The position numbers and the translations under genes are program-made. 28,978 nt of DNA from a virus, in the UHGV virus genome UHGV-0201389; one strand, written 5' to 3'. Shown here one piece after another: positions 3,964 to 28,978 of this stretch. Under the pieces are notes generated by a model. The model did no database searches, was not told the origin of the DNA, and saw nothing but the letters and a program-made list of their open reading frames with translations. Every line of letters begins with the position of its first letter. Within the stretch, counting starts at the first letter, position 1.

Positions 3964-3968
3964 CCAAC

Positions 3969-3995
3969 GGGGGCGCAATGCCCCCAATAATTTTC
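3969..3995 (+). terminator. Weak hairpin/terminator after portal
   Basis: GGGGGC-gcaat-GCCCCC hairpin followed by a short T run. Confidence 0.3.
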
Positions 3996-4005
3996 AAGGT
4001 GATCT

Positions 4006-7877: not shown

Positions 7878-10800
7878 ATGCAATCAATCCAATTTAAACG
7901 CACACAGACGGCTGGTAAAAAGCCAACGCCGGAACAATTACAGGTCGGTGAAATCGCTATTCAGATGGCAGACCATGTAATTTATACCAAAGATAAAAAT
8001 AACGCAGTAGTTCAAGTAAGTGTTTCTCCTGAAAGCCATAATGCTTTAAACACGAAAGTAGACAATAACAAGAAAACTACTGATTCTACTATCGCGGCAA
8101 ATAAAACCGAAGCTGCTAACGCTCTGGCTACCGCTAAATCTGAACTGAATAACACCATTACCACGAAAGATACAGCAACCAATAAGCGCATTGATGCTAC
8201 TAACACCACTGTTAGTAACTTAACCCAGACAGTTACGGCAAATAAAACCGACGCTGACAGCAAACATACCACTTTAACTAACACTGTTGCGGCAAACAAA
8301 TCAGCTATTGAAACTACCGTAGCGAATAACAAACGAGATGCGGACAATAAAATCTCAGCTTTAACCACTACGGTTAATGACAATAACACCGCGATCAATA
8401 GCCGTGTTGATGCCACCAACACCAATGTTAGCAATCTGACCAAAACCGTTACAGCTAACAAGTCTGATGCTGATTCTAAGATCTCCAGCTTAACGAGTAC
8501 CGTTGCGGCTAACAAATCAGCCATTGAAACTACGGTAGCGAACAATAAACGCGACGCTGATACGAAGATCACCAACTTAACCAACACTGTTAATAGCAAC
8601 CACACCGCCATTAACGCGAAGGTAGACAAAAACAAGACCGATGCAGATGCAGCGATTGCAGCCGCTAACCGTCGAATTGATGGTATTGAAGGTAGTGCCG
8701 ATGCTGCTTACATCAAGAAGAATACCAATACCTATCATCATGGCTATCTGTTAAGCAAGACTGCTAACTACTTTGATGATACCGGTGCTCGTAACCTTGA
8801 TTATTTTGGTGCGTTTCGTCCGAACAATGCCGAAGGGTGGGGTAACTTAATCCTTAACATTCCTCATTCTGGCGGTAAAGCACACGGTCGCGGCTTTGAG
8901 TTCCATTATGGGTCTAGCTCATCTCAGGTTAAAACCTATGGCTTTGATGCTAACGGTGCTAAAAGATTCAGCTATCGCATGTATCACGAAGGTGATAAAC
9001 CTACACCATCGGAATTGAACGTTTACAGCAAACAAGAAGTTGATCGTATGTTTGTTAAAAACGTTAAAATGTCGGTTCCTTCTGGTGATGCAACTCGTGG
9101 ATATTTTAAGATTGCAACCGCAATGATTCCGCAGCAAGGCAGAATGGCATTTATTCGCATCTATGGTGGTAACGGTTATAACGTTAATTCTTACGATCAA
9201 GTTGACTTTCTTGAAATTGTTATCCGTAGCGGCAACGGAAACCCTAAAGGAGTTAGTATTGCTGCATATCGTCGAAATGCTAAAAATATTCATCAAGTAT
9301 TTGCGGTTAACACTTCCGGTGATAACTACGATATCTACGTTAACTACGGTCGTTATACTGATAACGTTATTGTCGAATATGGTAAAACTAACGATGTTAC
9401 ACTGACGGTACATGACGTTCCTGAAATAACTCTCGTTAAGCCGTCCACTGGTGTTACTGATGGTAAAGTAATTACCATGTTTAACACAGAGAACAAAGCC
9501 GGAACTATTCGTTTTGATGATAATACACAGGGAACTTACGATATTATCAGTTTGTGTAATGATACTGGTGATGGTAAAAAATATCTTCGTCAGTTCCGTA
9601 GTAAATCAGGTCATACTATTTGGCATGAAACTGTTCAGGGTAGCGTGTACCGCCTAGCTACTGGCACTACTGACTCAAACGAAGTTCTTAAAATTACCGA
9701 CCGCACGCTGCAAACTGGTCGTGCTGTTCTTGATGGTGGTAATATTCGTTTAGAACGCCAGACAGGGAATAGTAACCTTGTTGAATATTGGGATCGTCGT
9801 AACGGTGCTAACGTTCGTCAATCATGGTTTGGTTTTGGTAATGCCGACACTAACGCATTCCAGATCTATAGTGATGCTGGTAAAAACAACTTTGCGTTAG
9901 AACAAAGCGGTCAGATCTCTCTTAATGTTGGTGCAACAAAAATTGTCCATACCAACGGGCAATATATTTCAACTAACGCTGATGCATATCGTATGATTTA
10001 CGGTAATTACGGTGCATTCTGGCGAAATGATGGTGTTAAAACCTATCTTCTGTCTACCGCCGAAAATGATAAATGGGGTAGCTGGACTGGAAACCGTCCA
10101 TTCATTTATGAATTTAGTTCCGGTAACGTTAATTTAGGTGGTGATTCCAATAAATCCGCATTGACCTTAGAAGGTGCAAGCAAAGCCGCTCGATTTGGTG
10201 GTCATGTTTATACTGGCGGTAACTTACATAATACTGGACAGCATATAACGATGGAAGCCGGACTTGCTGGACAATCCCGCGATTTTATTCGCTTTAACCA
10301 TTGGGGTGATAGCAGTAACGGTCGTGATAACGTCCTGTATGTGGAAGATAGCAAAGGACGTCATTTCAGCACCGAGCGTAATATGGCTACTGGTGGATTG
10401 AAAGCAAACTTCTTAGGAGACTTTGAAGTTGGTGGTAAATTGACATGGGGTAAAGGTACAGCACAATCCTCGTTTAACTGTCGTGTTTGGGGTAATGCTG
10501 ATCGTAAACAGGTTTTAGAGTGGGCTGATGAAAGCGGTTGGCATTTCTATAGCCAGCGTGCAGGTGGTCCAGGAACTACAGCGATTCAGTTTAGTGTAAA
10601 TGGACAAATCAACGCACAAAACTTGAACGTTTCTGGTAAGGTTACTACCCCGCAAATTAGCGCATTTGGTGTAAACGTTGCTAATGGATTAGGTGGCAAC
10701 TCAATTGTTTTGGGTGATAGTGATACTGGCTTTAAGCAAAACGGCGACGGTATTTTAGATGTATATGCTAACAATGTGGCAGTAATGCGTTTTACTTCCG

Positions 10801-15758: not shown

Positions 15759-16411
15759 TGGCAACTATTCAGGAATCATTCAGTAAACTATGCACTAATC
15801 TGGACTTCATCGAGGTATACAACGACCAGACAGGTCAGAACGTGTCTAGATTGACTCTACCGCAACTTTTCTCCACCGGATCGATGTTTCACATTATCGA
15901 AGTAGTAACCGCGTCAGGGGACGTTCTACGGCTTACTGATGGTTATTTCGATTTGGACTATAACGGGTTTACGTATCTCGCAACGGGTGATTTTCTTAAA
16001 ATCTCATCTAACACCGAAGAGAAGGAGATCAACAACAACGGGATCAACGTAACTGTTTCTAACGTCCGTGAAGAGTATGTAACTCTCATTCGTAACAAGC
16101 AATTCGATAAATCTGATGTAAAAATCGAGATGGTTTTCCTTAACCCTAACACGGGCAAGGTAGAAACCACTTACCCTGTTTTCCGTGGGGTAGTCGATTC
16201 CATCGGTATTAACATCGAACATGAAGATGATGAGTGTAAAAACGAATCAGAATTCCAGCTTAATAGTATCTGGGAAGTTCTAGATAAAAACGCTCGTAGT
16301 CATGCCTCCGATGGTATTCACCGTTCGTATGCCGGAAACGAGAACGATCTATTCTTCTCCCGCGCCGGGAAGTGGAATAGCGAAAGCAAGTGGCATTCAT
16401 CTAAGAAATAA
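15758..16411 (+). CDS. Minor tail protein, gpL-like position (217 aa)
   Basis: Translationally coupled to the preceding gene (TAATG overlap, SD GGAGA); sits between the distal tail and NlpC/P60-like genes. Confidence 0.6.
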   Translation: MATIQESFSKLCTNLDFIEVYNDQTGQNVSRLTLPQLFSTGSMFHIIEVVTASGDVLRLTDGYFDLDYNGFTYLATGDFLKISSNTEEKEINNNGINVTVSNVREEYVTLIRNKQFDKSDVKIEMVFLNPNTGKVETTYPVFRGVVDSIGINIEHEDDECKNESEFQLNSIWEVLDKNARSHASDGIHRSYAGNENDLFFSRAGKWNSESKWHSSKK

Positions 16412-16457
16412 TCCCTTCTCCCTAAGCCTAGTAAATAACAGCATGGAGGTATTCAAC

Positions 16458-16877
16458 ATGCTAAAAACTAGGCTTATCACTGATTACATCAATTCATTAA
16501 TAGGTCGGGAATTCGTTCAAGGTGAGAATGATTGCAATCTGATTGCATGTAAGATCATCGATATTCTCGCAGGGACCGACCTGTTTAATTCTCTATATCA
16601 AAAATATTCGACAAAAGAAGAAGGCTTGAAAATCTGCAAAGAATTAAGCGGATACACAAACATCCTTCAACCAATTAAAGAACATTTCAAATTAGTCACT
16701 GATGATTTACAGGACGGCGACTTACTGGTCACAGCCCACAAATTAGGAAACCGTAATTATTATTCCGTAGTTCCTCATTATTCCGGTTATGGCCTCGTTG
16801 AAGAAGATGGTATCTGGATGACCATTCCTGTTTCAGACATTGACTATGAACAAGTTTATAGATTCGGGGGTGAATAA
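16458..16877 (+). CDS. Tail tip assembly protein with NlpC/P60-like domain, gpK-like (139 aa); the listed ORF start at 16302 is rejected
   Basis: [12 protein letters not shown] Cys motif and downstream His residues consistent with an NlpC/P60 papain-like fold; SD GGAGG 8 nt before the ATG at 16458; stop overlaps the gpJ-like start (TAATG). Confidence 0.55.
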
Positions 16878-19800
16878 TGGGAATTGAAGTATTGGTAGGC
16901 GCGGTTATTGCTGGTGCGTCTGCTGGGATGGCTGCTGCTGCAACATTTTCTGTTATGACCGCAGTCGCTATCGGTATGGCTGCTGGTGCTATGACCTTGA
17001 TCGCTTCCACTGTAGGCGCACCAAAAACACCAAAAGTACAAAGCCCAGATAATGCGGTGACGCTAGGAACATCAAACGATCCTAAGACAGTATTACCCGT
17101 TCTTTTCGGTACTACCCGTACTGGTGCGATTTGCGTTTATAAGGCTATTTCTAAGAAAGAAAACAATAAGTTAGTTCAAATCTTCGCAATTGCAGAAGGT
17201 GAAATTGACCATTACAAAGCACTGTTTATCGATAATAAAAATGTTCTCGTTGGTAAGAACATGACGATCCGCGATGGTGTACTGGACAAGGGCAACATTA
17301 AAGAAGAATACCGGAAAGTATTAGAGGTTGAATTCCGCACTGGTAAGAATCCTAACACCGCCTTGTCACTGGCAAAAACTCACTTAGGCTCAGACTGGAC
17401 CGACGCTTACAAGGGTAACGGCATTGCTACCATGTGTATTGTTTTACGCCGTGATGATAAATCTCTTGCTGCTGGTGTTGATATTCTCCAGCCTAATAGC
17501 CAAGTGGCAGTCGATGTTATGGGCTTAAAAATTCGTAACCTTGAAACCAATGCTATTGAGGCCAGCACTAACGGCGTGGACCAGATTTTCCACTACCTAA
17601 CAAATGAAAAATATGGTCTTTCAGTACCAATTGAAAACATTAACGTTGATTCGTTCCTGAAAGTTCGCCAGCAAGTTCGCCAAATGGACCTACATTCAAA
17701 CGGTGCATGTGATCCGAACGCCAGCTTTAAAGAGAACTTAACTAGCCTTATGCAGACTTTCGGCGGGGTGATGTTCGAATCCTTCGGACGTATTACTCTG
17801 AAACTGGATGCTCCTGATATTGTTAAGCATGTATTCAATGAAGACAATATTATGATGGGTAAGGTATCGCTTAAGACTGGTGGCACTAACGGTTATTTCA
17901 ATACCATTAACGCGATGTATCAAGAACCATCAATTGACTATTCAGAGCAAATGCTACGTTATCCGGCTGATGCTGAAAATGATGCTACTATCCGCGAAGA
18001 TGGTCGAATTATTGCCAAAGATATTGAATATCGTTTTGTTAAGTCTAAAGACCAGATTGATAAACTTGCGAGCATTGAACGAAATAAATCTCGAATCACT
18101 CAGGTTATCAGCTTTATGACTACTGACGCATTCACTGCCGAAGTGTGGGACGTTATCAGCGTAACCTATGATGAATTAAAACTGAATAATTCCTTATGGC
18201 GTATTACTGCAATTGATCGCAGTATCGATTCTGGTATTGCTGGGATGATGACTATCACCGCCACAGAATATAATTCTCAGGTTTATACTGACCTGAACTA
18301 TGCGGCGAATCCAGACAATAGACCAACTGGTTTACCGGATTCAATGACAGTACAGAAGCCAACTAATTTCAGAATTAAGGCAACTGGTGAGACAATCCAC
18401 GGTAAAAACGTTACTTTGACATGGGATGCACCGGAAGACTTCAACCGTTACGGCTTCCAGATTGATTACAAAGTGAGTGGATCACCTAACTGGATTAAGC
18501 TGGGACAGACTTCACAGCAAATTTTCAATATCAATGCACTGGCAAAAGATCGTTCCTACGATTACCGCGTGTGTGCTTTCGGTATCATCGCCCGTTCTGA
18601 TTGGGTAGAACTGGTTAACCAGAATCCAGAAGTTACCTATGAACTACCTACGCCAGTGATCCGTATTAAAAATCAGGGTAGCACACCTGGTACTTTCGAA
18701 GGCAATGATCTGATTATTGAATGGGATAACCAGCAAAAATTAGATGTTGTTATCAACGGTGAAACTAACAAGTTTAGCGACCTGTTCGAAGCCTACATTA
18801 TCAAGGTAACTAACAAGGCTGGTAAGTCTATTCAGTACCGTACCCGCGATCCTGAATCGTGGACCTATACGCTTGATATGAACCAGTTTAACGGCCTTTC
18901 CCGTCAACTGACGGTAGAAGTATCCGCTAAGGGTTATAACAACTCTGTGAGCGCTCCAGCGCGTTTAGTGGCTATTAACCCACAGCATAAGCCAATGAAA
19001 GGATTTAGTGCGCGTGGTGGCTTTAATAGTGTGTTTGTTAGCTGGACCGATGACGTAGAACATGACTATGCAGGGTCAATCATTCAGTATGCAACCGACA
19101 ATACTTTCTCTGATGCAAGGGCGGTGACAACTAACAGCGTTAGCCATACTTCCTTTGATTTGGCTGATGGTGATTATTATATCCGTGGTGCTCACTACGA
19201 TATTTTCGGTATCGATGATGCTGTTTGGTCTGAACCTTATTACATGTCTATGCAATCTTCGATTAGTTGGGAAGATCAGGACAAAGAAGCACTGGAAGAC
19301 CTGATTGGTTTACAGGATCGCTTAGATGAAACTATCGCTGATGCTATTGCTCAAGCTGGCGCTAATGCTGATGCTAAAATCGATGCAATGCATAAGCAAA
19401 TCACCACCGAAACGGGTAAAACTGTTCAAGCCTCAGCCGATACCTTAAAGAGTCTGATTACTTCTGGTGATCAAGCCAGTGCAACTAAGATTGATCAGGT
19501 TAAAGCTGAACTAAAAGGCGATATCACGAAAGAGGTTAGCGCATCTGCTACTACCCTGAAACAAGCTATTGCAACCAGTGAGGCAGCAAGCGCAAGTAAG
19601 ATTGATCAAGTTCGGGTAGAAATGGACGGTAAGATTGCTGGCGTTAACCAGGAAGCAGATGTAAAAATCGATGCTTTGAAGGGAACCATTAACAGCAAAT
19701 ATAATCTGGCAGTTAATGCAGATGGTCGCGTGGCTGGTATTCACATGAGCGCAACCAACGATCCGGCACAACCGACGAGAATCATCTTTACGGCTGATAA

Positions 19801-20653
19801 AATCGCGGTAGCTCCACAATCTGGATCGGGTGTTTGCCCGTTTGGTATCGAAAATAACAAGGTTTATCTCGATAATGCCATGATTCGTAATGCTGCAATT
19901 GGCACAGCACAGATTAATGATGCGGCTATTACTACCGCTAAGATCGGCAATGCTGCAATTAACAGCGCGAAGATTCAGGACGGGGCAATCACTAACGCCA
20001 AGATCGTAAACGGTGCAATTGATAATGCCAAAATCGGTAACTATATCCAGTCTTCCAACTGGAACGGATCTACCGGATGGCATATTAACAAGAATGGTAG
20101 TGCTACGTTCATGAACGCCACCGTTAAAGGTAATATCACGGCTGATTCTGGTACTCTGAACAACGTCACGATTAACTCTAGCTGTGTTATTAAGGGTATG
20201 CTTGAAGCTACTCAGGTTAAGGGTGATTTCGTTAAGGTGATTGGTCGTAAGTTCCCGCACCGTGATGTTAACGTTGATAATGGTTATGCAGGTTATCCAC
20301 AGGGTACGGTCACTGTTCGCGTTGAAGATGATCATAACTTTGACCGTCAAATCGTTATTCCGGCAATTAGTTTTGGTGGATTGCGAGCGCGTGAAGGATC
20401 GAACGGTAATACGTTTTATGACACATGTCGCCTAATTGTTCGTAAGAATGGGTCAGAGTTGTATAATAGGGCGTATGGTGGCAATACTGGTCTTTACTCT
20501 GGTGTTATTGATATGCCGAGGGGTGGTGGTGCTGTAACTATCACGTTTGAAGTACAATCAAGCGCAATCAACAACTGGACACCGAGTACATGGATTAGTG
20601 ACTTAACGGTAATGGTAACTAAGAAAGCAACTACCGGTATTACTGTTTCTTAA
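16877..20653 (+). CDS. Central tail fibre / host specificity protein, lambda gpJ-like (1258 aa)
   Basis: Follows the gpK-like gene as in lambda; Gly/Ala-rich hydrophobic N-terminus; fibronectin-III-like segments; Ala-rich coiled-coil repeats; AKI-type short repeats; C-terminal ~150 aa ([12 protein letters not shown]...[13 protein letters not shown]...LTVMVTKK) resemble, from memory, the lambda J receptor-binding domain. Confidence 0.85.
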
Positions 20654-20671
20654 AATTTAATTTTAATAATA

Positions 20672-20713
20672 AATCCCGCTTAATACTTTGTAATTAGGCG
20701 GGATTATTTTTAT
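20672..20713 (+). terminator. Rho-independent terminator after the gpJ-like gene
   Basis: AATCCCGC...GCGGGATT stem with extended imperfect pairing, followed by TATTTTTAT. Confidence 0.75.
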
Positions 20714-20755
20714 CTAAATAATTCTGCCATTAAATTATAAAATATCGGGGGCGTA

Positions 20756-21034
20756 ATGACTGAAATTATATATGGCGGTATCGGTGTTATCGCCTTAATT
20801 TGTGGTGGGCTTTGGAGACTCCACCGAAATCAATTAGCCACAGAAAATAGGTTGTCTAAATTGGAATCCAGCGACGCATTGTTAAACCAGAAGTTTGAGA
20901 CGATGCAAAGTAACCATGACCAGATTGCCGAGAGAGTTTATCGAATGGAACAAACCCTGCACGGTATAGAAAAGAAAGTGGTTGCTATGGACGCCAAATT
21001 TGACCAAGTTATCGATTTACTCAAACAAAAATAA
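20756..21034 (+). CDS. Membrane-anchored coiled-coil protein (92 aa), possible lysis-associated (spanin/antiholin-like) or exclusion protein
   Basis: N-terminal hydrophobic helix (IIYGGIGVIALICGGLW) followed by a heptad-like charged region; SD GGGGG upstream; AT-rich codon usage distinct from the structural genes. Confidence 0.5.
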   Translation: MTEIIYGGIGVIALICGGLWRLHRNQLATENRLSKLESSDALLNQKFETMQSNHDQIAERVYRMEQTLHGIEKKVVAMDAKFDQVIDLLKQK

Positions 21035-21053
21035 TAATACTAAGGGTGAATAT

Positions 21054-21224
21054 ATGAAGAATAAACTTAAAAAATACTTTGGTTATCTCTTAATAATCGC
21101 CCTCACTTATAACGTAGCATTACGACCTCTGCTTACGTCCTTCGGGCTTAATCTTCCGGCTATGGCTGTGAATGATGAATTGCTTAGGACTATAGCGGGG
21201 GTCTTTTCGTTATTAGGGGGCTAA
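21054..21224 (+). CDS. Small membrane protein (56 aa), holin-like candidate
   Basis: ATG preceded by AAGGGTGA; basic N-terminus then hydrophobic segments (YFGYLLIIALTYNVAL, IAGVFSLLGG). The longer ORF from 20982 overlaps the upstream gene and lacks an RBS. Confidence 0.45.
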   Translation: MKNKLKKYFGYLLIIALTYNVALRPLLTSFGLNLPAMAVNDELLRTIAGVFSLLGG

Positions 21225-21225
21225 C

Positions 21226-21831
21226 ATGTCTAAACCGAAAATCTCATCCAACATTGATAAGGTGAAGAAAGACATCAAGGATTGGAAAAAGAAGGCTAGT
21301 AATAGTTTTCATAAAGATTTAGGTTTAGCGGTCATTGATGAGCGGGTAAAGTTACAGAAGAAAATCAATTCAAGGATAGATCGCCCGACCAAATTCACAC
21401 AGAAAGCGGTCAATTCATATAACCGTATTCGCTCCAGTGGTAAAACGTCTTTTCATAGCGTTTTTATCATGAACAATCAGGAAAAATACTTAAAATACTA
21501 CTTTGAAGGTGGTAGTAATATTGAGAAATTTGTTCCTGTAACCGATGACCGTACTAACCAATTTGGTAACATTCCACAACTCAAAAACGGTAAGAAAATA
21601 GGGAAGTATGTAACCACCAAATCTAAATCAGGTAAAATACTACTTCTCGATCCATCCGTTAAAGCAGGAATGAAAAACAAGAAAAAGCTAGGAAAGCGTC
21701 TTGTTGCGGTTTTGAAGACAACCGACCGTAGTAACATTATGGGGTCATGGAAAGAAAATGAAAATGAGATGAAAAAGAATATCCAGAAGAGAATGAAAAA
21801 ACACTTCATAGGTAAGATCAATTTCGTCTAA
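21226..21831 (+). CDS. Lys-rich basic hypothetical protein (201 aa)
   Basis: ORF with SD GGGGG; very Lys/Asn-rich; no recognisable catalytic motif. Confidence 0.6.
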   Translation: MSKPKISSNIDKVKKDIKDWKKKASNSFHKDLGLAVIDERVKLQKKINSRIDRPTKFTQKAVNSYNRIRSSGKTSFHSVFIMNNQEKYLKYYFEGGSNIEKFVPVTDDRTNQFGNIPQLKNGKKIGKYVTTKSKSGKILLLDPSVKAGMKNKKKLGKRLVAVLKTTDRSNIMGSWKENENEMKKNIQKRMKKHFIGKINFV

Positions 21832-21870
21832 TCCATAAATACCCTCATAGAAACTTTATGAGGGTATAAC

Positions 21871-22218
21871 ATGGCTAAAAATATTTTTACTGAATTCCCC
21901 ACTTATCCGGTCGATCAGCTCTCCGGTATTTTTATTAATGGCATTAGCCCAGAATCTATGACACATGATTTTGAGGCAAAGAGAGTACAACATAAACAAT
22001 TCAAGCAAATGATCCGCGATGATGGTAATGGGCTAGTGTTTTGTGTTGCGACACTCGCTAAACGTCCTAAGTATCGTTTTCGTGTAGGCCAAGAGATTGA
22101 CATTGATAATCCTTATAATTTCAACTGCTTAGGTGACACGCGAGCGGTTTGCTTAGGTACTGCTCCTTATTATATCAAGGGTATGCGCTTTATTGGATAT
22201 ATCTTCCAGTACCTTTAA
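21871..22218 (+). CDS. Hypothetical protein (115 aa)
   Basis: ORF with upstream GAGGG; no recognisable motifs; immediately upstream of the peptidase gene. Confidence 0.55.
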   Translation: MAKNIFTEFPTYPVDQLSGIFINGISPESMTHDFEAKRVQHKQFKQMIRDDGNGLVFCVATLAKRPKYRFRVGQEIDIDNPYNFNCLGDTRAVCLGTAPYYIKGMRFIGYIFQYL

Positions 22219-22229
22219 GGGGGTAATAT

Positions 22230-22583
22230 ATGTTAAGCAAATACTTTTCCCGCAAGGAATTCAAATGTAAATGCGGAAAATGTGATTATGATACTATCGA
22301 CGCTGAATTGCTGGTAGTTCTCGATGATGTTCGTGAACACTTCGGGAAACCAGTAATTATTAACAGTGGGAACCGTTGTCCGACTCATAACAAGAATGTA
22401 GGCGGGGCAACCAATAGCTATCACGTTCGAGGCCGTGCGGCTGACATTGTAATCAAGGGTGTCTCCCCTGATATTGTCCATGCTTATCTTGATGGGAAAT
22501 ATCCTACTCAATATGGTCTAGGCAAATATAAAACCTTTACGCATATTGATAGCAGGTCGAAAAAATCTAGATGGAATGGTTAA
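22230..22583 (+). CDS. Peptidoglycan peptidase, Peptidase_M15 (MepK/YcbK-like zinc hydrolase) - probable endolysin
   Basis: YFSRKEF...SGNRCPTHNKNVGGATNSYHVRGRAADI...HID matches the His/Asp/His zinc-binding pattern of M15-family cell-wall peptidases; TAAGGGGGTAATATATG initiation motif; followed by a strong terminator. Confidence 0.65.
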   Translation: MLSKYFSRKEFKCKCGKCDYDTIDAELLVVLDDVREHFGKPVIINSGNRCPTHNKNVGGATNSYHVRGRAADIVIKGVSPDIVHAYLDGKYPTQYGLGKYKTFTHIDSRSKKSRWNG

Positions 22584-22603
22584 TCGTCAATTCACATATA
22601 ACA

Positions 22604-22636
22604 AAAAAGCGCCTCACAATGGCGCTTTATTTTTAT
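22604..22636 (+). terminator. Rho-independent terminator after the peptidase gene
   Basis: Perfect 8-bp stem AAAGCGCC / GGCGCTTT, 7-nt loop, followed by TTTATTTTTAT. Confidence 0.85.
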
Positions 22637-22701
22637 CTGGCGCAAATTGACGATAGCGCCCGTGTCGCGCAGAGTACGAGAAATCAGAATTGAAAGTTGT
22701 T

Positions 22702-22857
22702 ATGGCGGCAGATGATGAGATTTTGCCACTTGACACAAAGATCGCTTATTATCAAATGGTAATGGATTTTGCTGGTCGTGCACTGGATATTGTTAAATCT
22801 CGTGGGTTTGCGATCAAGAATGCTATAGAATTGCGTATGTTGGAATCCGGTCGATAA
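22702..22857 (+). CDS. Small hypothetical protein (51 aa), uncertain
   Basis: Sub-60-aa ORF translated manually; weak RBS; lies between two terminators. Confidence 0.3.
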   Translation: MAADDEILPLDTKIAYYQMVMDFAGRALDIVKSRGFAIKNAIELRMLESGR

Positions 22858-22877
22858 ATATATGCAGGAGGAATTTT

Positions 22878-22964
22878 ATGAGTGAATGTATTTGTAGTGT
22901 ATGCAAACAGCCAGTAGAATTGGCGTTTGTGATTAAAGTAAACGACCATGTTGTTCACCCTTAA
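22878..22964 (+). CDS. Cys-containing micro-protein (28 aa, MSECICSVCKQPVELAFVIKVNDHVVHP), uncertain
   Basis: Consensus SD AGGAGG 7 nt upstream of the ATG; CxCxxC motif; directly upstream of a bidirectional terminator. Confidence 0.35.
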   Translation: MSECICSVCKQPVELAFVIKVNDHVVHP

Positions 22965-22979
22965 AATAACTAATTATCA

Positions 22980-23012
22980 AAAAGCCCCAACCGAAAGGAA
23001 GGGGCTTAATTT
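22980..23012. terminator. Bidirectional terminator at the strand switch
   Basis: AAGCCCC...GGGGCTT stem with internal CC-gaaa-GG, T runs on both strands; abuts the helicase stop codon. Confidence 0.75.
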
Positions 23013-24506
23013 TTATGCGAGCATTATACGTTTTTGAGTCCAGTCGAATTTATCGGATATATAACACTTTATTCTTTCAAGCGCATGACTAACAGCATAA
23101 TTCTTACGGGTAACTTTTCCATTCTTACCCACAATGCAAAGGTCGTCTATCAAATCCCATACTACCGCAATTGCTTTACTACCATGTTTCCTAAGAGCAC
23201 GTCCTATTGATTGCCGGACAATGGTTGATTCTTTAACCGGATGACCAAAGATGACATGGTGTAGATTCTTAATCGAAACACCAGTAGAGAAAACACCATA
23301 GGAGGCAACTACAATCAATCCTTTCTCATTTTCAGCCATTTTCTTTAAGGCATCGCGTTCGGCGGTGGTAATCTCACTGGAAACGTAATAAACCTTATCG
23401 TAAACGCGCTGTAATGCATTATAAAGCATTTTTCCATGCTTAGAGTACCGGAACATCAAAAATACGTTTTCTTGCTTTCTAGCGAGTTTTAAGGCCAATT
23501 CACAAGCCAGTTTATTCCTTGCTTTGTGACCATTGATGAATTTAATCTCTTCCTGATAATCTTTACCCCGCATTGCTTTACATTCTTCATCCTTGTACTT
23601 GAGGAAGAGAGCATTAATCTTAAGCTGGGTAACTTGTCCGTCATCCATCAATTGTTTTATTGCTACTATCTTCTGAATATCACCAAACAACCCGACATAT
23701 TGCATTAAATGGCATTTTGATTCTTTCGGGGAACCAGTCATACCGATTTTGAACTGGCAGTGATTCATTCCGTTGATGATGTTGGTGATATTCTTTGCAC
23801 TGGCACGATGTGATTCATCAACTATCAACATTCCATATTGTCGGAACCATTCAGGAGGCATCTTGCAAGCTGATTGCCATGTACTGACAGTGATTAACCT
23901 GTCTCCCGGATGTTTCCCGCTACCACTCATCATTGTATGGATTGCTTCATGAGGGAATAGCCTATAATCGACAAAATCATCCCTCATTTGAACCACCAGC
24001 GATGTAGTCGGGACAATGATTAGAATCTTTCCGGTGTAGTTCTCCAGATACCAACGAGACAGCATACAAGCAATCAATGACTTACCCGCACTGGTAGGAA
24101 GAACCAGCATTCTACGGCGATTATGGATACCCTGAAATACTGCCTCCCTTTGATACCAGTAAGGATTGATTTTATTGCTACCGGAATACACTTCTAAAGA
24201 GTCAATCCATGAATCAATCTGTTCTTTGGTTACATCTTCCTTCTCAAGCAATCTGGGGTCTACCCATACGCTATAGCCCATGTTTTTAGCGAAGATACCC
24301 AATGTTTTCAATAATCCGATTGGCAGGGTATTTTCATGCGTAAACAGTCTTATCTTTCCATCCCAGCCGGAATATTTGTAGCGGGGGCTAAATCTAGCCC
24401 CTTCAACCTCAAACGAGAAATAATCTCTTAATTCCATCCCAATGGAAGGAGAGCATTCAACCTTAACGAAACTGTAATCTTGAAAATGAATGTTAATATC
24501 TTGCAT
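23013..24506 (-). CDS. uvsW: UvsW-type SF2 DNA helicase (start at ATG 24506; the listed ORF extends to GTG 24515)
   Basis: Walker A LPTSAGKS, DExH-type motif II IVDESH, and an N-terminal domain (HFQDYSFVKVEC...LRDYFSF) characteristic of T4 UvsW-like helicases; ATG overlaps the stop of the upstream gene (TAATG). Confidence 0.85.
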   Translation of the reverse strand: MQDINIHFQDYSFVKVECSPSIGMELRDYFSFEVEGARFSPRYKYSGWDGKIRLFTHENTLPIGLLKTLGIFAKNMGYSVWVDPRLLEKEDVTKEQIDSWIDSLEVYSGSNKINPYWYQREAVFQGIHNRRRMLVLPTSAGKSLIACMLSRWYLENYTGKILIIVPTTSLVVQMRDDFVDYRLFPHEAIHTMMSGSGKHPGDRLITVSTWQSACKMPPEWFRQYGMLIVDESHRASAKNITNIINGMNHCQFKIGMTGSPKESKCHLMQYVGLFGDIQKIVAIKQLMDDGQVTQLKINALFLKYKDEECKAMRGKDYQEEIKFINGHKARNKLACELALKLARKQENVFLMFRYSKHGKMLYNALQRVYDKVYYVSSEITTAERDALKKMAENEKGLIVVASYGVFSTGVSIKNLHHVIFGHPVKESTIVRQSIGRALRKHGSKAIAVVWDLIDDLCIVGKNGKVTRKNYAVSHALERIKCYISDKFDWTQKRIMLA

Positions 24507-25075
24507 TAGTTCCACTCCACACTTGCAATATTCTTTATATTGTTTAGTGATTTATTGCAGTAGTGGAATGTTTCAGTTTTGCCGTATTCAATCCCGCCTA
24601 TACCCACATCCAACATTCTCTTTATTGCTCGCTCAGTGGCTAGCGCATGTTTCATTGATGGCATTTCACGAGCATAGACAATATCAAAGTTATGACCGGG
24701 ATTGCGTAAGCCCAGATTAACCCTACGTTTGATAATCGATTTTGTTACACCAAATTTACCAATATCGCCGGATTGCATCACATAGAGATATGGTACACCC
24801 GCTTTATATTGAAAATAATCACTCTTGAAACATACACAGCGTTTGCCTTCATTAAGCAGGTTAGTAGCTGATTTGTCGGCTCTATCACCGCAGCGAGTAC
24901 ATGTAAGAGCAATTCTCGTGTGAAGCCCTTTAAACTCACCCAGAAAGCCATGAAAGACTAACGGTAAGTCATTATCTTTGATGTGAGTAAGAATGCGTTG
25001 TTCTAATGCTGGTGGAGTTACAGCACGGGATGATTTAGGAGTAAAAACAATATCTTTAGCCATTACTGGAATCAT
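24506..25075 (-). CDS. Zn-ribbon + T5orf172/GIY-YIG-like domain protein (189 aa)
   Basis: CTRCGD...CVC zinc-ribbon-like Cys cluster followed by YLYVMQ...KFGVTKS...R...GKTETF, matching the T5orf172 (GIY-YIG-like) pattern; SD GTGAGG upstream; coupled to the helicase gene. Confidence 0.65.
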   Translation of the reverse strand: MIPVMAKDIVFTPKSSRAVTPPALEQRILTHIKDNDLPLVFHGFLGEFKGLHTRIALTCTRCGDRADKSATNLLNEGKRCVCFKSDYFQYKAGVPYLYVMQSGDIGKFGVTKSIIKRRVNLGLRNPGHNFDIVYAREMPSMKHALATERAIKRMLDVGIGGIEYGKTETFHYCNKSLNNIKNIASVEWN

Positions 25076-25229
25076 ATAGACCTCACTTTAACTTATAGGC
25101 AAAACCCTCAATATGGTTGGTTTGTAACTTTAGGGTCGCGGATTATATATCAAAGTTAGTACAGATGCAATAGTGAGATAATTTTATCCAATAAATAGTA
25201 GTGAACTTATAATTTTAGAGGAAACTACT
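25076..25229. promoter_or_regulatory. AT-rich divergent intergenic region with candidate sigma70-like promoter for the + strand gene
   Basis: TTGTAA (25122-25127), 16-nt spacer, TATATA (25144-25149); SD AGAGGA before the ATG at 25230; a leftward promoter for the helicase operon is expected here too but was not resolved. Confidence 0.4.
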
Positions 25230-26255
25230 ATGAAACTAGCATTTGCCAAAGACATTGATTTTGTGAAAGTTGGTAAGCAGAAAACACCGCAATTCTACGA
25301 AGAAATCTGTATTGAATATGCACACAAGACTAAGAAGACTTTCAAAGGATTTATCCTACCGTGGGAAGCCAACCGAACCAGAACAATGTTTATTGACAAT
25401 GAAAGCGGTAAAGAATCTACACCGATGTTGATCAACGTTCGTACATCATGGGGGAAGGTTAAAGGATGCAAACTGGACAAGGGTATCAGTCCGACGGTAA
25501 AACATAAGGCAATGAATCTTTCCAGCGAGAAGAAGCAACAAAAATTAGAGAAACTATACTCAGATGTGAGAAAAGCCGTGGAACACGGTAATAATAAACT
25601 GATTCGAATCACAGGAGAGTTACCAAGCCGCTATAAGTCATATGCTGAATGTAAATGTCTTATCCATAATGAAATCTTTGTTCGAAATTGTCGGGACTTG
25701 ATTCATAAAGGTAGCGCCGCGTGTCCTCAGTGCTTATCTGTCATGCGTTCTATGCAAAATGGTATTTCTCATTACAAATATCATGGAAAAATCAGACCTG
25801 TATCTCTCTATATCCAGTCTCTAGATAAAGAGTTCATCAAATTTGGCATCTCTATCAATCCAGAAGCACGAATGAGAGAACAACAAAGAAACTCACCATT
25901 CATTCATAGTCTGGTTTATACGCATGAATTTAAGGAAGGTTGGAAAGCAGTTGATGTTGAATATGGAATTAAAACCATTTTTAAAGGAAAGAAACTAACC
26001 ATTGATGATTTATCGACCGGATATACAGAAACACGGGATTACAAGTTACTCTCAGAAATTATTAAATTCGTTGATGATTACATCAAAACCGATCCTACCG
26101 TACCGCAATACATTCAAGACGAAAATGAATTCTGGTCACAGATTGGCGGTGATTTTGAACTAGAAGAATCAACGTTCGTGTTTCCAGATACCAGCGATGA
26201 GGAATATTACAATAATTTAGCAGAACTTGATTTAAGCCCTTTAGACACTCTCTAA
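25230..26255 (+). CDS. Zn-ribbon + T5orf172/GIY-YIG-like domain protein with extra N-terminal domain (341 aa)
   Basis: CKC...C...CPQC Cys cluster followed by LYIQS...KFGISINPEAR...GYTETRDY, paralogous in architecture to the 189-aa protein on the opposite strand; acidic C-terminus. Confidence 0.65.
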   Translation: MKLAFAKDIDFVKVGKQKTPQFYEEICIEYAHKTKKTFKGFILPWEANRTRTMFIDNESGKESTPMLINVRTSWGKVKGCKLDKGISPTVKHKAMNLSSEKKQQKLEKLYSDVRKAVEHGNNKLIRITGELPSRYKSYAECKCLIHNEIFVRNCRDLIHKGSAACPQCLSVMRSMQNGISHYKYHGKIRPVSLYIQSLDKEFIKFGISINPEARMREQQRNSPFIHSLVYTHEFKEGWKAVDVEYGIKTIFKGKKLTIDDLSTGYTETRDYKLLSEIIKFVDDYIKTDPTVPQYIQDENEFWSQIGGDFELEESTFVFPDTSDEEYYNNLAELDLSPLDTL

Positions 26256-26270
26256 CGCAATTAAATTAAA

Positions 26271-26292
26271 AAGGGGTACATCTGTACCCCTT
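26271..26292 (-). terminator. Perfect 22-bp palindrome serving as terminator for the recombinase gene (alternative reading: recombination site)
   Basis: AAGGGGTACA-TC-TGTACCCCTT; on the minus strand the stem is followed by TTTTTAATTT, 37 nt downstream of the recombinase stop. Confidence 0.6.
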
Positions 26293-26328
26293 AAAGCGTT
26301 TAGCTCGTTATACGTCGATTTAGGCCGC

Positions 26329-28008
26329 TTAAATTCCAAATTCTTGCAATGGACCTGGTATTTCTTCTTCTGGTTTCCAGTTCTTATCTGTCAGCATGTC
26401 TAAACATGGATGCAGAACAAGCCCGTTACTTTCCAGAATCTGCCTATCATTGATAGTCTTCAAATCAATGAATATCCGGCCTTTCCTCGTTCCTCTTGAA
26501 TTTTCTATTACAACTCTCTGGGTCTTACCATCAACGTATTCCAGTACAAACAAGTTTTTGTTCCTGTCAATCCTTCTACACCCGATCCGCTTTAGAGCTT
26601 GCTTAATCTTAAACCGGACCTTGATTCGTTCCTCATTGTAAACATCTTCTAAATCAAATTCTGCGAGCTTCTCCCAGCCTTGAGAGTCCACAGAATACAT
26701 TTCCTCTTCTGCCATCTTAATCTGATTGTAGAGTGTTTCACGCTCGCTATTAAGGGCAGTAATCTGATCGGCTAGTTCCTTCGTTGCTCCTGTCATAGCA
26801 GAAAGGGCGATCAGGTTATCAATCTTGCGTGATATTTCATCAATCTGTACTTTCAACGCCGGAACCGGGTTAGCCTTATCCTCAGCAATCCAGATTTTAT
26901 CAGCCAGCAATTGCAATACAGCTTTCTCTAATTGGTCGCCGCGAAAACTCCAGTTTGGATGCTCGCAATCAAGTCTACGTGAACGTGTCGCATCACATGT
27001 ATAACGATACTGGTCAGAACGTTTGTTTGTTCCCTTCACTTTAACCATAGCGCAACCGCAATGATCACATTTCAATAGGCCAATGCCACTAAGCAAGGGG
27101 ATCGGTTTAACTTCTTCCTTATCTCCAAAATTCCATGCTCTAGCACCAATATTTTTCTTAAGGTGATAGAACGTAGGGTCGTCAATAACACGAGGGTAAT
27201 AATTGTTTAACTCATAGTTAACGCCATCTACAGAGACCTCCTTGATACCAATCAAAGCGCGGGTATGGAACAATCTTTCAACCATTGCCCGTGACCATTT
27301 TGAATGCTTCTTATTACTAACCGCTGGTGGTGGTGTATATGTCTCGTTAAGGTGATCCAGTATTTCGGCGGTTGAACGTCCATTCTTCCGTAATTCCACA
27401 ATCTCCTGAACAACAGGGAAGTATGTCGGATGAGGCAGCACATAACCGGAAGTGGTATCAGTCCACCACATATTCTTTCCGACTTCCTCGATAGCAACAG
27501 CCGGATTCTGGGGATTTTCTTGATGAGCTTTAATCTTAATCAATGCGCTTGAGTTAGTACGATTGCGCTTAGTCTGGCTTTCCTCGTTAGCCCTGGCAAA
27601 TAGCATGACACTCAAGAGTAAATCGATGGGATTAGCATTAACCGATTCACGGCTATACACTCTGCCATCCATACCAGTGACAATAGTTATTCCCCTACGG
27701 ATAATCGAGAGAAATAGCTCTTGTGCTTCAATGATGGACTGGCGAGAGATACGGTCCAAGTTTTCCACAACCAACCAGCTACCAACAGGAACGGATCGAC
27801 CAATCTCATCCAGAAAGCGGGATAATGCACCTGTTTTACTGTTAGCCCCTTTGAATGCTGATACACCAAAATCCTGATAGCTTGTAACTAGCTCAAGATC
27901 ATATTTTGCGGCAATCTCTGCGGCTGTTCTCTTCTGGCGTTCATAAGAACTACCATCCGCTTGCTTCATAGACGAGAAGCGAATATACGAATACAGTTTA
28001 GTTTTCAT
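26329..28008 (-). CDS. Large serine recombinase (integrase/resolvase family, ~559 aa from ATG 28008; the listed ORF extends to GTG 28059)
   Basis: N-terminal resolvase motifs YSYIRFSS (catalytic Ser), DFGVSAF, LVVENLDRISR; central recombinase domain; CDHCGC...C...C zinc ribbon; C-terminal coiled coil. Confidence 0.85.
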   Translation of the reverse strand: MKTKLYSYIRFSSMKQADGSSYERQKRTAAEIAAKYDLELVTSYQDFGVSAFKGANSKTGALSRFLDEIGRSVPVGSWLVVENLDRISRQSIIEAQELFLSIIRRGITIVTGMDGRVYSRESVNANPIDLLLSVMLFARANEESQTKRNRTNSSALIKIKAHQENPQNPAVAIEEVGKNMWWTDTTSGYVLPHPTYFPVVQEIVELRKNGRSTAEILDHLNETYTPPPAVSNKKHSKWSRAMVERLFHTRALIGIKEVSVDGVNYELNNYYPRVIDDPTFYHLKKNIGARAWNFGDKEEVKPIPLLSGIGLLKCDHCGCAMVKVKGTNKRSDQYRYTCDATRSRRLDCEHPNWSFRGDQLEKAVLQLLADKIWIAEDKANPVPALKVQIDEISRKIDNLIALSAMTGATKELADQITALNSERETLYNQIKMAEEEMYSVDSQGWEKLAEFDLEDVYNEERIKVRFKIKQALKRIGCRRIDRNKNLFVLEYVDGKTQRVVIENSRGTRKGRIFIDLKTINDRQILESNGLVLHPCLDMLTDKNWKPEEEIPGPLQEFGI

Positions 28009-28061
28009 ACCATTTCCAAACAAAAACGCCCCGACCGAAGTCGAGGCGATATTACACACAT

Positions 28062-28403
28062 TCAGTCTTTGAAGTCGATGGTCACGTTACCTTTAAGGGC
28101 AAGTTCCATTAAGCAACTGCGCTCATCCTTCATGCTCTTACACAATTTCATCCCATAAACGACGAGATTATCTTTCTCTTTCCAATATTTTTGTTTCTCT
28201 GCATAAACCTCGCTATATTCACTATCTTTGAGTGAGAGAGCATTTTCTAACTGGCTAATCTCCTGATTCAGATCCTTAATCTCAGCCTTAGTTGACCGGA
28301 TAGTCTCTTGATGTTGAGTATCGGAATAGTCATACCCACAAGCAAATCCACCAATGCCACCAACACACACAGAAACAATAATTGCGTAGATAGTCTTTTT
28401 CAT
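28062..28403 (-). CDS. Secreted or membrane-anchored coiled-coil protein (113 aa)
   Basis: N-terminal signal/anchor MKKTIYAIIVSVCVGGIGGFA with a possible cleavage or weak lipobox at FA-C; heptad-rich middle; two C-terminal Cys; SD AAGAGGA upstream. Confidence 0.6.
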   Translation of the reverse strand: MKKTIYAIIVSVCVGGIGGFACGYDYSDTQHQETIRSTKAEIKDLNQEISQLENALSLKDSEYSEVYAEKQKYWKEKDNLVVYGMKLCKSMKDERSCLMELALKGNVTIDFKD

Positions 28404-28444
28404 AATTGAATCCTCTTTGAATGAATTACGATATATTTATATCA

Positions 28445-28570
28445 TTAAAAATTGATGCTAATAACCAGACCAAATACCACCGCACCAATCAAATCAATCC
28501 AGTTAATACACAATCCGCTATATTCTTTCTTGAATGTCTTAGATGAAATGCCATCATGAAACTGTTTCAT
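28445..28570 (-). CDS. Small tail-anchored membrane peptide (41 aa, MKQFHDGISSKTFKKEYSGLCINWIDLIGAVVFGLVISINF)
   Basis: Manually translated sub-threshold ORF; SD GGGGTGAG; start lies 3 nt after the stop of the upstream 26-aa ORF. Confidence 0.4.
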   Translation of the reverse strand: MKQFHDGISSKTFKKEYSGLCINWIDLIGAVVFGLVISINF

Positions 28571-28573
28571 TGC

Positions 28574-28654
28574 TCACCCCATACTAACGACAAGATAAGA
28601 AAGACTAATCATAGTTGTGAGACTACCTCCCACGAATGAGATAAAAGCTAACAT
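28574..28654 (-). CDS. Hydrophobic micro-peptide (26 aa, MLAFISFVGGSLTTMISLSYLVVSMG)
   Basis: Manually translated; consensus SD AGGAG 8 nt upstream of the ATG; entirely hydrophobic. Confidence 0.4.
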   Translation of the reverse strand: MLAFISFVGGSLTTMISLSYLVVSMG

Positions 28655-28671
28655 GTTTGATTCTCCTAGTT

Positions 28672-28698
28672 TAAAAAGCGGTGGGAATTGCACCCACC
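28672..28698 (-). terminator. Weak intrinsic terminator/attenuator on the minus strand
   Basis: GGTGGG-7-nt loop-CCCACC stem followed on the minus strand by GCTTTTTAA, just downstream of the 89-aa ORF stop. Confidence 0.45.
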
Positions 28699-28708
28699 AA
28701 ATTAGAAA

Positions 28709-28978
28709 TTACTTCTTGCTAATAAACTCTTTGTAGATAAAATCTAAGACTTCCTTTAACTTCTTATCGGTGCCAATCATCGCCGGAAGTTCTTCTTTAA
28801 TATCGCGGGGAAGATACACATTACCTTTCCAGAACAAGCAACCACATTGAGCAATCGAATAGCTGAACATCCATTCACAATCTTGTTCAGTCTCCCAGAA
28901 TCTAACCTGCTCATCTTCGAGTTGAAGTTCGATTCCACGGCGGCGAGCATAGTTATGGATTGCTTTGGTAATGTTCAT
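28709..28978 (-). CDS. Hypothetical protein (at least 89 aa; N-terminus may lie beyond the window end)
   Basis: ORF running to the window edge on the minus strand; no recognisable motifs. Confidence 0.5.
   Translation of the reverse strand: MNITKAIHNYARRRGIELQLEDEQVRFWETEQDCEWMFSYSIAQCGCLFWKGNVYLPRDIKEELPAMIGTDKKLKEVLDFIYKEFISKK

Follow-up and report, generated by a model that had tools for sequence, protein, structure and literature searches.

A probable prophage integrase of the large serine recombinase family at ycdX in Escherichia coli

Introduction

Serine integrases such as those of phiC31, Bxb1 and A118 leave a recognisable signature, namely a 2-bp non-palindromic crossover within short quasi-symmetric sites that share no long core repeat. 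The integrases of phiC31, Listeria A118/LI, Bxb1 and TP901-1 have a common domain order (catalytic domain, alpha-E helix, recombinase domain (RD), and zinc-ribbon domain (ZD) with a coiled coil), their genes adjoin attP, and their insertion is intragenic. The same domain order (with the coiled coil predicted), the same catalytic residues, short quasi-symmetric attachment (att) sites with a 2-bp non-palindromic core, a position next to attP and an intragenic insertion are seen for the large serine recombinase (LSR) encoded near the right end of UHGV virus genome UHGV-0201389, a stretch of 28,978 nucleotides (nt) referred to here as the window. An earlier note, made from the letters of the window alone, had described this LSR in a genome that otherwise looked virulent-type, and had left three roles for it: integrase of a temperate phage or prophage, resolvase, or part of a mobile cassette. 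We found that the window covers the rightmost 29 kb of an E. coli prophage about 37-38 kb long. The evidence given below points, with a probability that we put at roughly 0.87, to a temperate, siphovirus-like phage of ~37-38 kb that is inserted in ycdX and has the LSR as its integrase.

A full-text literature search found no paper on ycdX or hicB (the second target gene of the family) together with a serine-integrase prophage and none describing the family, and a broader literature search on LSRs found no paper describing it. The prophage family is uncharacterised so far, and its LSR is an ordinary prophage integrase. Exact attP, attB, attL and attR sequences and the 2-bp AA crossover in ycdX are now given for this family, which supplies a candidate for a new orthogonal pair of serine integrase and att sites that is native to E. 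coli, along with a close relative targeting hicB. Only the ycdX/hicB specificity pair, and the covariation of a ycdX allele with a third variant of the LSR, go beyond the routine.

Prophage junctions in ycdX

The 12,650 nt at window positions 16329-28978 were 100% identical to an E. coli metagenome scaffold in ENA, TAFT14-1_SAMN00991536 scaffold_21 (locus L039), which also encodes the exact LSR protein. From this identity and the presence on scaffold_21 of an open reading frame (ORF) of 165 amino acids (aa) from the window, the window corresponds to scaffold positions 15251-44228. Position 1 of the window falls 52 nt inside the large terminase gene; its last position, 28978, lies at the start codon with which the final phage gene begins, and the attR crossover follows 42 bp further on. 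The scaffold continues as ...ATGTTCAT / CGTTGTATCCTCTCGTGTTATTGTGGGTACATGATATTAGGG-AA-TCCCAAATATGAAATAG, and 42 bp beyond the window end it passes, at ...GATATTAGGG-AA-TCCCAAATATGAAATAG, into the 3′ part of ycdX, which is followed by ycdY, ycdZ and csgG. Because IMG/VR proviruses of the same family terminate at the identical nucleotide, the window boundary reflects gene-boundary trimming of a provirus prediction. The apparent surprise of an LSR in a virulent genome arises from window boundaries that exclude the lysogeny arm and the att site, and the virulent-type description gives way to that of a cut-out from a chromosomal prophage in ycdX.

The complete genomes of FDAARGOS_1267 and PSJ-22 contain the same prophage within ycdX, whose N- and C-terminal fragments are thereby separated by 37-37.4 kb. 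Both ycdX and hicB are intact in K-12 and strain N47, and attL and attR were aligned to the empty attB of these two strains (Table 1). The AA dinucleotide was the sole identity of B and P at the ycdX crossover, with mismatches directly on either side in three host backgrounds, and comparison of attL, attR and attB revealed no long direct repeats at the junctions. The attP rebuilt from the junctions is short and imperfectly dyad-symmetric; when its arms are read as an inverted repeat, 15 of 25 positions agree, among them a distal ACCC(A/C)CAATAA motif. This site is located between the 89-aa ORF, the last gene of the right arm, and a small-terminase-like gene of the left arm. The att sites fall just outside the window, the P half-site of attP starting only past its end. 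The integrated YcdX is truncated to residues 1-134 plus PNVVNPQ, and the exact 89-aa end gene was found at 10 distinct places, all adjoining ycdY and integrated in ycdX. At the sequence level, these junctions argue for an enzyme of the serine integrase class as their maker, and no recombinase family besides the LSR was found in 29 scanned ORFs, a set made up of 19 window ORFs and 10 from the left arm of relative L003 that does not include the other small ORFs.

Megablast of window positions 22000-28978 against 5426 complete E. coli genomes detected the element in 58, each time in the chromosome, so that about 1% of complete genomes carry the prophage family. The idea of a plasmid-prophage was rejected, as there was no match among 72,556 plasmids. 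A search of host genomes for attL/attR junctions, which the earlier note had proposed, located them in ycdX (27 records) and hicB (31 records), essentially all of the 60 places found; with these junctions and the chromosomal copies, the integrase role is the one of the three that is supported. LSR homologues with 86-95% identity occur in many E. coli and Shigella assemblies, and all 30 listed LSR-positive genomes also matched the terminase-portal-capsid region, for which the structural search gave 55 genomes. Another proposed check, on the presence of the gene in relatives, showed that in every relative inspected the LSR keeps the same place beside the att site, at a distance of 0.9-1.7 kb from the att end. 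Species-representative genome contigs contained only relatives of at most 40% identity (Buttiauxella, Atlantibacter, Citrobacter, Enterobacter and others), which were uninformative for att sites.

The large ORFs of the window encode siphovirus-type products, comprising large terminase, portal, a protease-capsid fusion (HK97-fold), tail tube, tape measure, distal tail and tail-tip proteins, followed by an M15 endolysin, and this structural and lysis gene set is intact. The impression of a T4-like window, given by many Krischvirus matches, was rejected on account of the siphovirus-type structural genes. A megablast comparison of the whole window with 50,697 phage records returned short pieces only, from the tail-fibre and uvsW/uvsY regions.

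Several observations weigh against an active temperate phage with a working integrase. The best phage relative of the window capsid has 37% aa identity (tblastn), and no cultured phage with this LSR was found, the best phage match being 32% identical. The rebuilt attP was unmatched in IMG/VR viral contigs and JGI metagenome contigs, and an excised or circular form was not found. No repressor, excisionase/recombination directionality factor (RDF) or replication gene was recognised among the prophage ORFs scanned, and some copies carry insertion sequence (IS) elements (IS1, IS2, IS911) or a truncated LSR. With no attP-containing contig in the viral and metagenome collections, no cultured relative, nothing recognisable as a repressor or replication module in the short left arm, and disrupted copies in some genomes, the LSR might be taken for the relic integrase of a defective or cryptic prophage, without a current role and yielding neither excision nor virions. 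We regard this as unlikely, since the window retains the full structural and lysis gene set and the ratio of nonsynonymous to synonymous substitution rates (dN/dS) of the LSR is 0.14-0.20 overall between alleles, a range that indicates purifying selection. Moreover, unrelated E. coli strains, the double lysogens BS74R-D and UTME-9 among them, carry many diverged alleles exactly at two attB sites, a pattern implying that integration has occurred repeatedly and recently. Taken together, these data favour a temperate phage whose integrase is the LSR.

The 37% capsid match belongs to GenBank PQ671644.1, Escherichia phage DCP80 (L001 / L139; 141 kb, labelled Gaprivervirus), in which the first 25 kb make up a similar siphovirus-type module, fused to T4-like genes. 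The DCP80 record contains rIIA twice, in opposite orientations, and looks like a chimeric assembly.

Table 1. Attachment sites, integrase gene and domains, and neighbouring features of the prophage (positions are those of the window)
Feature	Position or sequence	Strand	Basis or remark
attB (ycdX)	CATCCCGGA-AA-TCCCAAATATG		core AA is ycdX nt 400-401, codon 134
attL	CATCCCGGA-AA-CCCGAACGTAG		5′ part of ycdX joined to P′
attR	ATATTAGGG-AA-TCCCAAATATG		P joined to 3′ part of ycdX
attP, rebuilt, about 52 bp	TTATTGTGGGTACATGATATTAGGG-AA-CCCGAACGTAGTCAACCCCCAATAA		from attL and attR
attP query used in viral and metagenome contig searches	ATATTAGGSAACCCRAACGTWGTCAACCC		
attP stretch without flanks	TTATTGTGGGTACATGATATTAGGGAACCCGAACGTAGTCAACCCCCAATAA		
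attB (hicB)	GAATTGGC-AA-ACCTAAACAGG		core AA is hicB nt 304-305
LSR (integrase) gene, 559 aa plus stop codon	26329..28008	-	Pfam, PHROGs, homologue length, dN/dS
Catalytic domain and long alpha-E helix, aa 1-164	27517..28008	-	PF00239, invariant columns, AlphaFold2 secondary structure
RD, aa 196-288	27145..27423	-	PF07508, haplotype tables
ZD, aa 312-373	26890..27075	-	PF13408, invariant cysteines, beta-hairpins of the model
Predicted coiled-coil motif, aa 382-438	26695..26865	-	AlphaFold2 helices, Foldseek alignment to full-length serine integrases
C-terminal region past the coiled coil, aa 443-559	26332..26682	-	AlphaFold2 strands 472-533, conserved alignment columns
Terminator-like GC hairpin and T-run	28017..28048	-	hairpin scan, relatives
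Hairpin between the convergent integrase gene and 341-aa ORF	26271..26292	.	terminator-like on the minus strand, hairpin scan
Variable cargo between endolysin and integrase, outside the integration module	22663..26255	.	Pfam, PHROGs, comparison with relatives
att-proximal cargo ORFs upstream of the integrase	28062..28978	-	ORF list, PHROGs, gene content varying in relatives
113-aa ORF, hydrophobic N-terminus and coiled coil	28062-28403	-	
Two small hydrophobic ORFs	28445-28570, 28574-28693	-	
89-aa ORF, phrog_6147	28709-28978	-	last phage gene

The LSR gene and its product

The minus-strand ORF at 26329-28059 is present in the window as listed, and the earlier note had taken the gene to extend over all of it. 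LSR homologues are all about 559 aa long and begin with MKTKLYSY, which corresponds to the ATG at 28008, and a terminator-like hairpin (28048-28027) lies within the 17 extra codons. On these two grounds, the true start is placed at the ATG at 28008, and not at the GTG at 28059.

Domain content, catalytic residues and fold of the product confirmed that it is a genuine LSR, of the phage type that the earlier note had claimed. In Pfam, it matched PF00239 Resolvase at aa 6-153 (E = 8e-15; 55.6 bits, cut-off 23.3), PF07508 Recombinase at aa 198-287 (E = 1e-8; 35.7 bits, cut-off 21.1) and PF13408 Zn_ribbon_recom at aa 310-368 (E = 1e-10; 42.1 bits, cut-off 25.3), all three exceeding the curated cut-offs, and in PHROGs it matched phrog_95 'integrase' (E = 9e-61). 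In a 15-sequence alignment with identity down to 39%, R10, S12 (the nucleophile, in YIRFSS), D85, R86 and R89 were invariant, as were the zinc cysteines C314, C317, C338 and C348. The catalytic serine, encoded at 27973-27975, falls within the Resolvase match, and both the N-terminal catalytic motifs and the zinc ribbon seen earlier in the translation are borne out.

The coiled coil, the third element read from the translation, is predicted by AlphaFold2 (mean pLDDT, the predicted local distance difference test, 74.5). The model has a helix at aa 127-164 corresponding to alpha-E, then a helical domain at aa 196-288, and further on a pair of long helices running antiparallel (aa 382-406 and 410-438; pLDDT about 80-88), which are predicted to form a coiled coil inserted in the zinc-ribbon domain. 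The C-terminal aa 443-559 comprise the remaining ZD and a beta-rich extension, and are conserved in the family. The top Foldseek matches of the model in PDB were the full-length serine integrase-att complexes 9dxf/9dxd (E = 1e-15) and phiC31 9rah, with the LI integrase-DNA complex 4kis also among the best.

A role as a resolvase of phage concatemers or replicon dimers would agree with the catalytic domain, which is common to resolvases. Resolvase structures aligned with the N-terminal domain of the LSR only, and the HTH_7 match was absent from the 559-aa protein in the Pfam scan. A protein of 559 aa with RD, ZD and coiled coil, as opposed to about 190 aa with a C-terminal helix-turn-helix (HTH), the integration of the element with LSR-type junctions 1 kb from the gene, and the absence of plasmid copies make the resolvase role extremely improbable, and we retain that of an integrase.

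The LSR gene is also a mosaic. Its catalytic domain (aa 15-140) occurs in two alleles with synonymous divergence (dS) of 1.3-2.0, which reassort independently of the DNA-binding-domain haplotypes (dS 0.3-0.5).

Integration into ycdX and hicB

Related prophages are inserted in hicB in OkiPb01713 and at several IMG/VR loci; L008, L017, L026, L035 and L047 are relatives of the hicB type, and L006, L007, L039, L045 and L046 of the ycdX type. Both types have an identical or almost identical attP: OkiPb01713 and PSJ-22 agree in P′, and L026 and PSJ-22 agree in the P arm. The LSRs of the two types are 87-92% identical. They are separated by 33 fixed substitutions that track ycdX or hicB targeting, 28 of which fall in the RD and ZD within aa 176-351, 16 of them in the RD. 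The DNA-binding-domain haplotype of the LSR matched the target gene at all 11 loci with a readable junction, and the haplotype of the window LSR is of the ycdX type. The type of the last ORF was rejected as a proxy for the integration site, because it did not track the LSR haplotype.

The double lysogens BS74R-D and UTME-9 carry one prophage per site, in ycdX and in hicB. As both coexist in these strains, the two integrase types would behave as orthogonal. The family may represent a natural specificity series of LSRs that act on near-identical attP sequences and on the unrelated targets ycdX or hicB, a tentative reading to which we give slightly less than even odds. If the substitutions are causal, they would provide a compact natural map of the determinants of attB specificity.

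Comparison of L004 with L005, and of L002 at 28096-28135, revealed two ycdX alleles that differ by 12 substitutions within 40 bp (nt 405-444), starting 4 nt from the crossover, and by 12 differences over the other 698 nt. The changes of the variant allele within nt 405-444 include K136R, E138P, V141F and A145S. About 86 genomes matched the variant allele at an identity of at least 95%, and those listed have an intact ycdX and no phage end. The sole lysogen with this allele is FDAARGOS_1267, which carries a third LSR variant with 29 of its 31 changes in the RD and ZD, and in which the attP arms are altered. These observations hint that the integrase co-evolves with the host target half-site.

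Proposed integration mechanism

The following steps are drawn from established LSR biochemistry, and the attL and attR products are read from the sequence. After infection, the genome would circularise and present the attP of about 52 bp (Table 1). Integrase dimers would bind attP and the attB within ycdX, the bound dimers would synapse via their coiled coils, and both sites would be cut at the central AA/TT dinucleotide, followed by rotation of the subunits and religation. The products would be attL, attR and the truncated ycdX that are seen in the genomes. LSRs recombine attP with attB in one direction only, and excision would require a phage directionality factor.

SPbeta, skin and the Listeria comK phages are known excision switches. 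By analogy, the prophage might act as a reversible switch ('active lysogeny'), in which excision by the LSR restores ycdX (or hicB) without lysis; its insertion is intragenic, precise and LSR-made as in the known switches, and the empty site is an intact ORF. There is no sign of conditional excision, ycdX has no known developmental role, the element occurs in only about 1% of E. coli, and an RDF was not found among the ORFs scanned, which together make such a switch quite improbable, clearly more so than a relic integrase. Ordinary integration of a temperate phage remains our preferred reading of the ycdX junctions.

Left arm and lysogeny control

The left arm of the prophage, 7-9 kb in length, lies outside the window, and its small-terminase-like gene adjoins attL. 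It contains a Rha/anti-repressor-like gene and many ORFs without a recognised family. That lysogeny genes are not visible in the window is mainly due to this position of the left arm. The statement of the earlier note that the window shows no such genes stands as far as none was recognised there; it does not extend to the prophage, whose left arm holds the Rha/anti-repressor-like gene, the only lysogeny control gene recognised (in relative L003). Neither the nine right-end ORFs of the window at 21226-28978 (Pfam and PHROGs; subsets in PADLOC and NCBIfam) nor the ten left-arm ORFs of L003 (PHROGs and Pfam) matched an excisionase, RDF or CI-type family, and the proposed search for a directionality factor gene came back empty among these ORFs. 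Rfam and tRNA scans of the window and the left arm gave no match.

Two regions of the left arm drew our attention. In L041, 1.4 kb at 2977-4377 are without a called ORF. This stretch contains at least nine copies of (Y)ATCCCCG phased every 11 bp (3730-3815), 8-bp CATACCWA repeats (3860-3905) and, beside an AT-rich zone, several longer repeats in direct and inverted orientation, with no Rfam or tRNA match, and is a candidate origin or regulatory array. In L003, three ORFs of 200, 85 and 64 aa at 4140-5002 and 8256-8450, without a family match, have the common motif RP..F.RE....Y......FFKK.GI....FYK..KK. On visual inspection, they resemble a small group of paralogous, putative DNA-binding proteins, which could include the missing regulator or directionality factor.

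Cargo genes and hairpins around the integrase gene

The neighbours named in the earlier note, a UvsW helicase module and small membrane proteins, were recovered as UvsW at 23013-24515 (PF21241 UvsW_N, E = 9e-36) and the small hydrophobic ORFs within 28062-28693. The block between endolysin and integrase contains a Krischvirus-like uvsY fragment, uvsW and two endonuclease-like ORFs (189 aa and 341 aa), which flank the uvsY/uvsW piece and match MUG113 and CapR in Pfam, respectively, and phrog_681 in both cases. The part at 22663-24515 is collinear with DNA of T4-like Krischvirus, without uvsW.1; identity to Krischvirus is 71% (nt) and 74% (aa) for uvsW and 78-90% (nt) for the uvsY/uvsY.-2 fragment, reaching 90% over 220 nt. 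Genes for UvsW and the endonuclease-like proteins are found in the window, PSJ-22, KSC64 and 14EC007, EC24 has other genes in the slot and no uvsW, the slot of OkiPb01713 is empty, and the block is missing or replaced in L008 and L046. Absence of the block from sister prophages, or its replacement there, suggests capture during T4-like infection of a lysogen, and the block shows that uvsW/uvsY DNA has passed from T4-like Krischvirus phages to a temperate phage.

The mobile-looking neighbours, that is, the endonuclease-like ORFs and the T4-like uvsW block, could also be seen as company of an LSR within a small transposon-like cassette that landed in a virulent phage. In all relatives examined, the LSR adjoins the att site at the same position, the neighbouring UvsW/endonuclease block is what comes and goes, and the recombination sites flank the whole 37-38 kb element; hence we give the cassette hardly any credence. 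By the comparison of relatives, the LSR is a core gene adjoining attP and the UvsW/endonuclease block is variable cargo.

The hairpin upstream of the integrase gene has nine pairs, seven of them GC, and ends about 9 nt ahead of the ATG, leaving no space for a promoter in between. At the same spot, L002 and L006-L046 have three unrelated hairpin sequences, each followed by a related T-run and ATG context, which reads TTTTTGTTTGGAAATGGTATG in most and TTTTTACTATGGGGTTATTATG in L002 and L033. The hairpin probably insulates the integrase from the upstream cargo genes and would keep its expression low.

Comparison with known systems

In structural alignments, the LSR is 13-16% identical to the characterised serine integrases, from which it differs in its extra conserved beta-rich C-terminal region, its E. 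coli host and its attB in ycdX. It is unlike the small serine resolvases and invertases (Tn3/gamma-delta, Hin/Gin), which have about 180-200 aa and a C-terminal HTH and work on res or inversion sites of a single replicon, in being a 559-aa protein with RD, ZD and the predicted coiled coil. The nearest phage matches are YbcK-type LSRs of lambdoid phages (DLP12; 4A7, Perceval, Lambda_4C10), with 32% identity over 80% and an enterobacterial host; the lambdoid records name the gene YbcK or large serine recombinase, and several give a hypothetical protein. Lambdoid phages with a YbcK-type LSR have a separate tyrosine integrase. In contrast to the YbcK type, the window LSR adjoins the att site and is the only recombinase family among the 29 ORFs scanned. 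The serine recombinases of the Burkholderia phages Bcep22, Bcep176 and JC1 show 29-31% identity over 85-94% of the length, and are annotated as integrase in the RefSeq record of Bcep22 and as serine recombinase or recombinase family protein in those of Bcep176 and JC1; these phages differ from the E. coli prophage in host and virion type. Genes annotated 'recombinase family protein' in E. coli, Shigella, Salmonella and Edwardsiella encode products of 557-562 aa that are 58-95% identical to the LSR and belong to the same family, and those in E. coli clearly represent the same prophage lineage.

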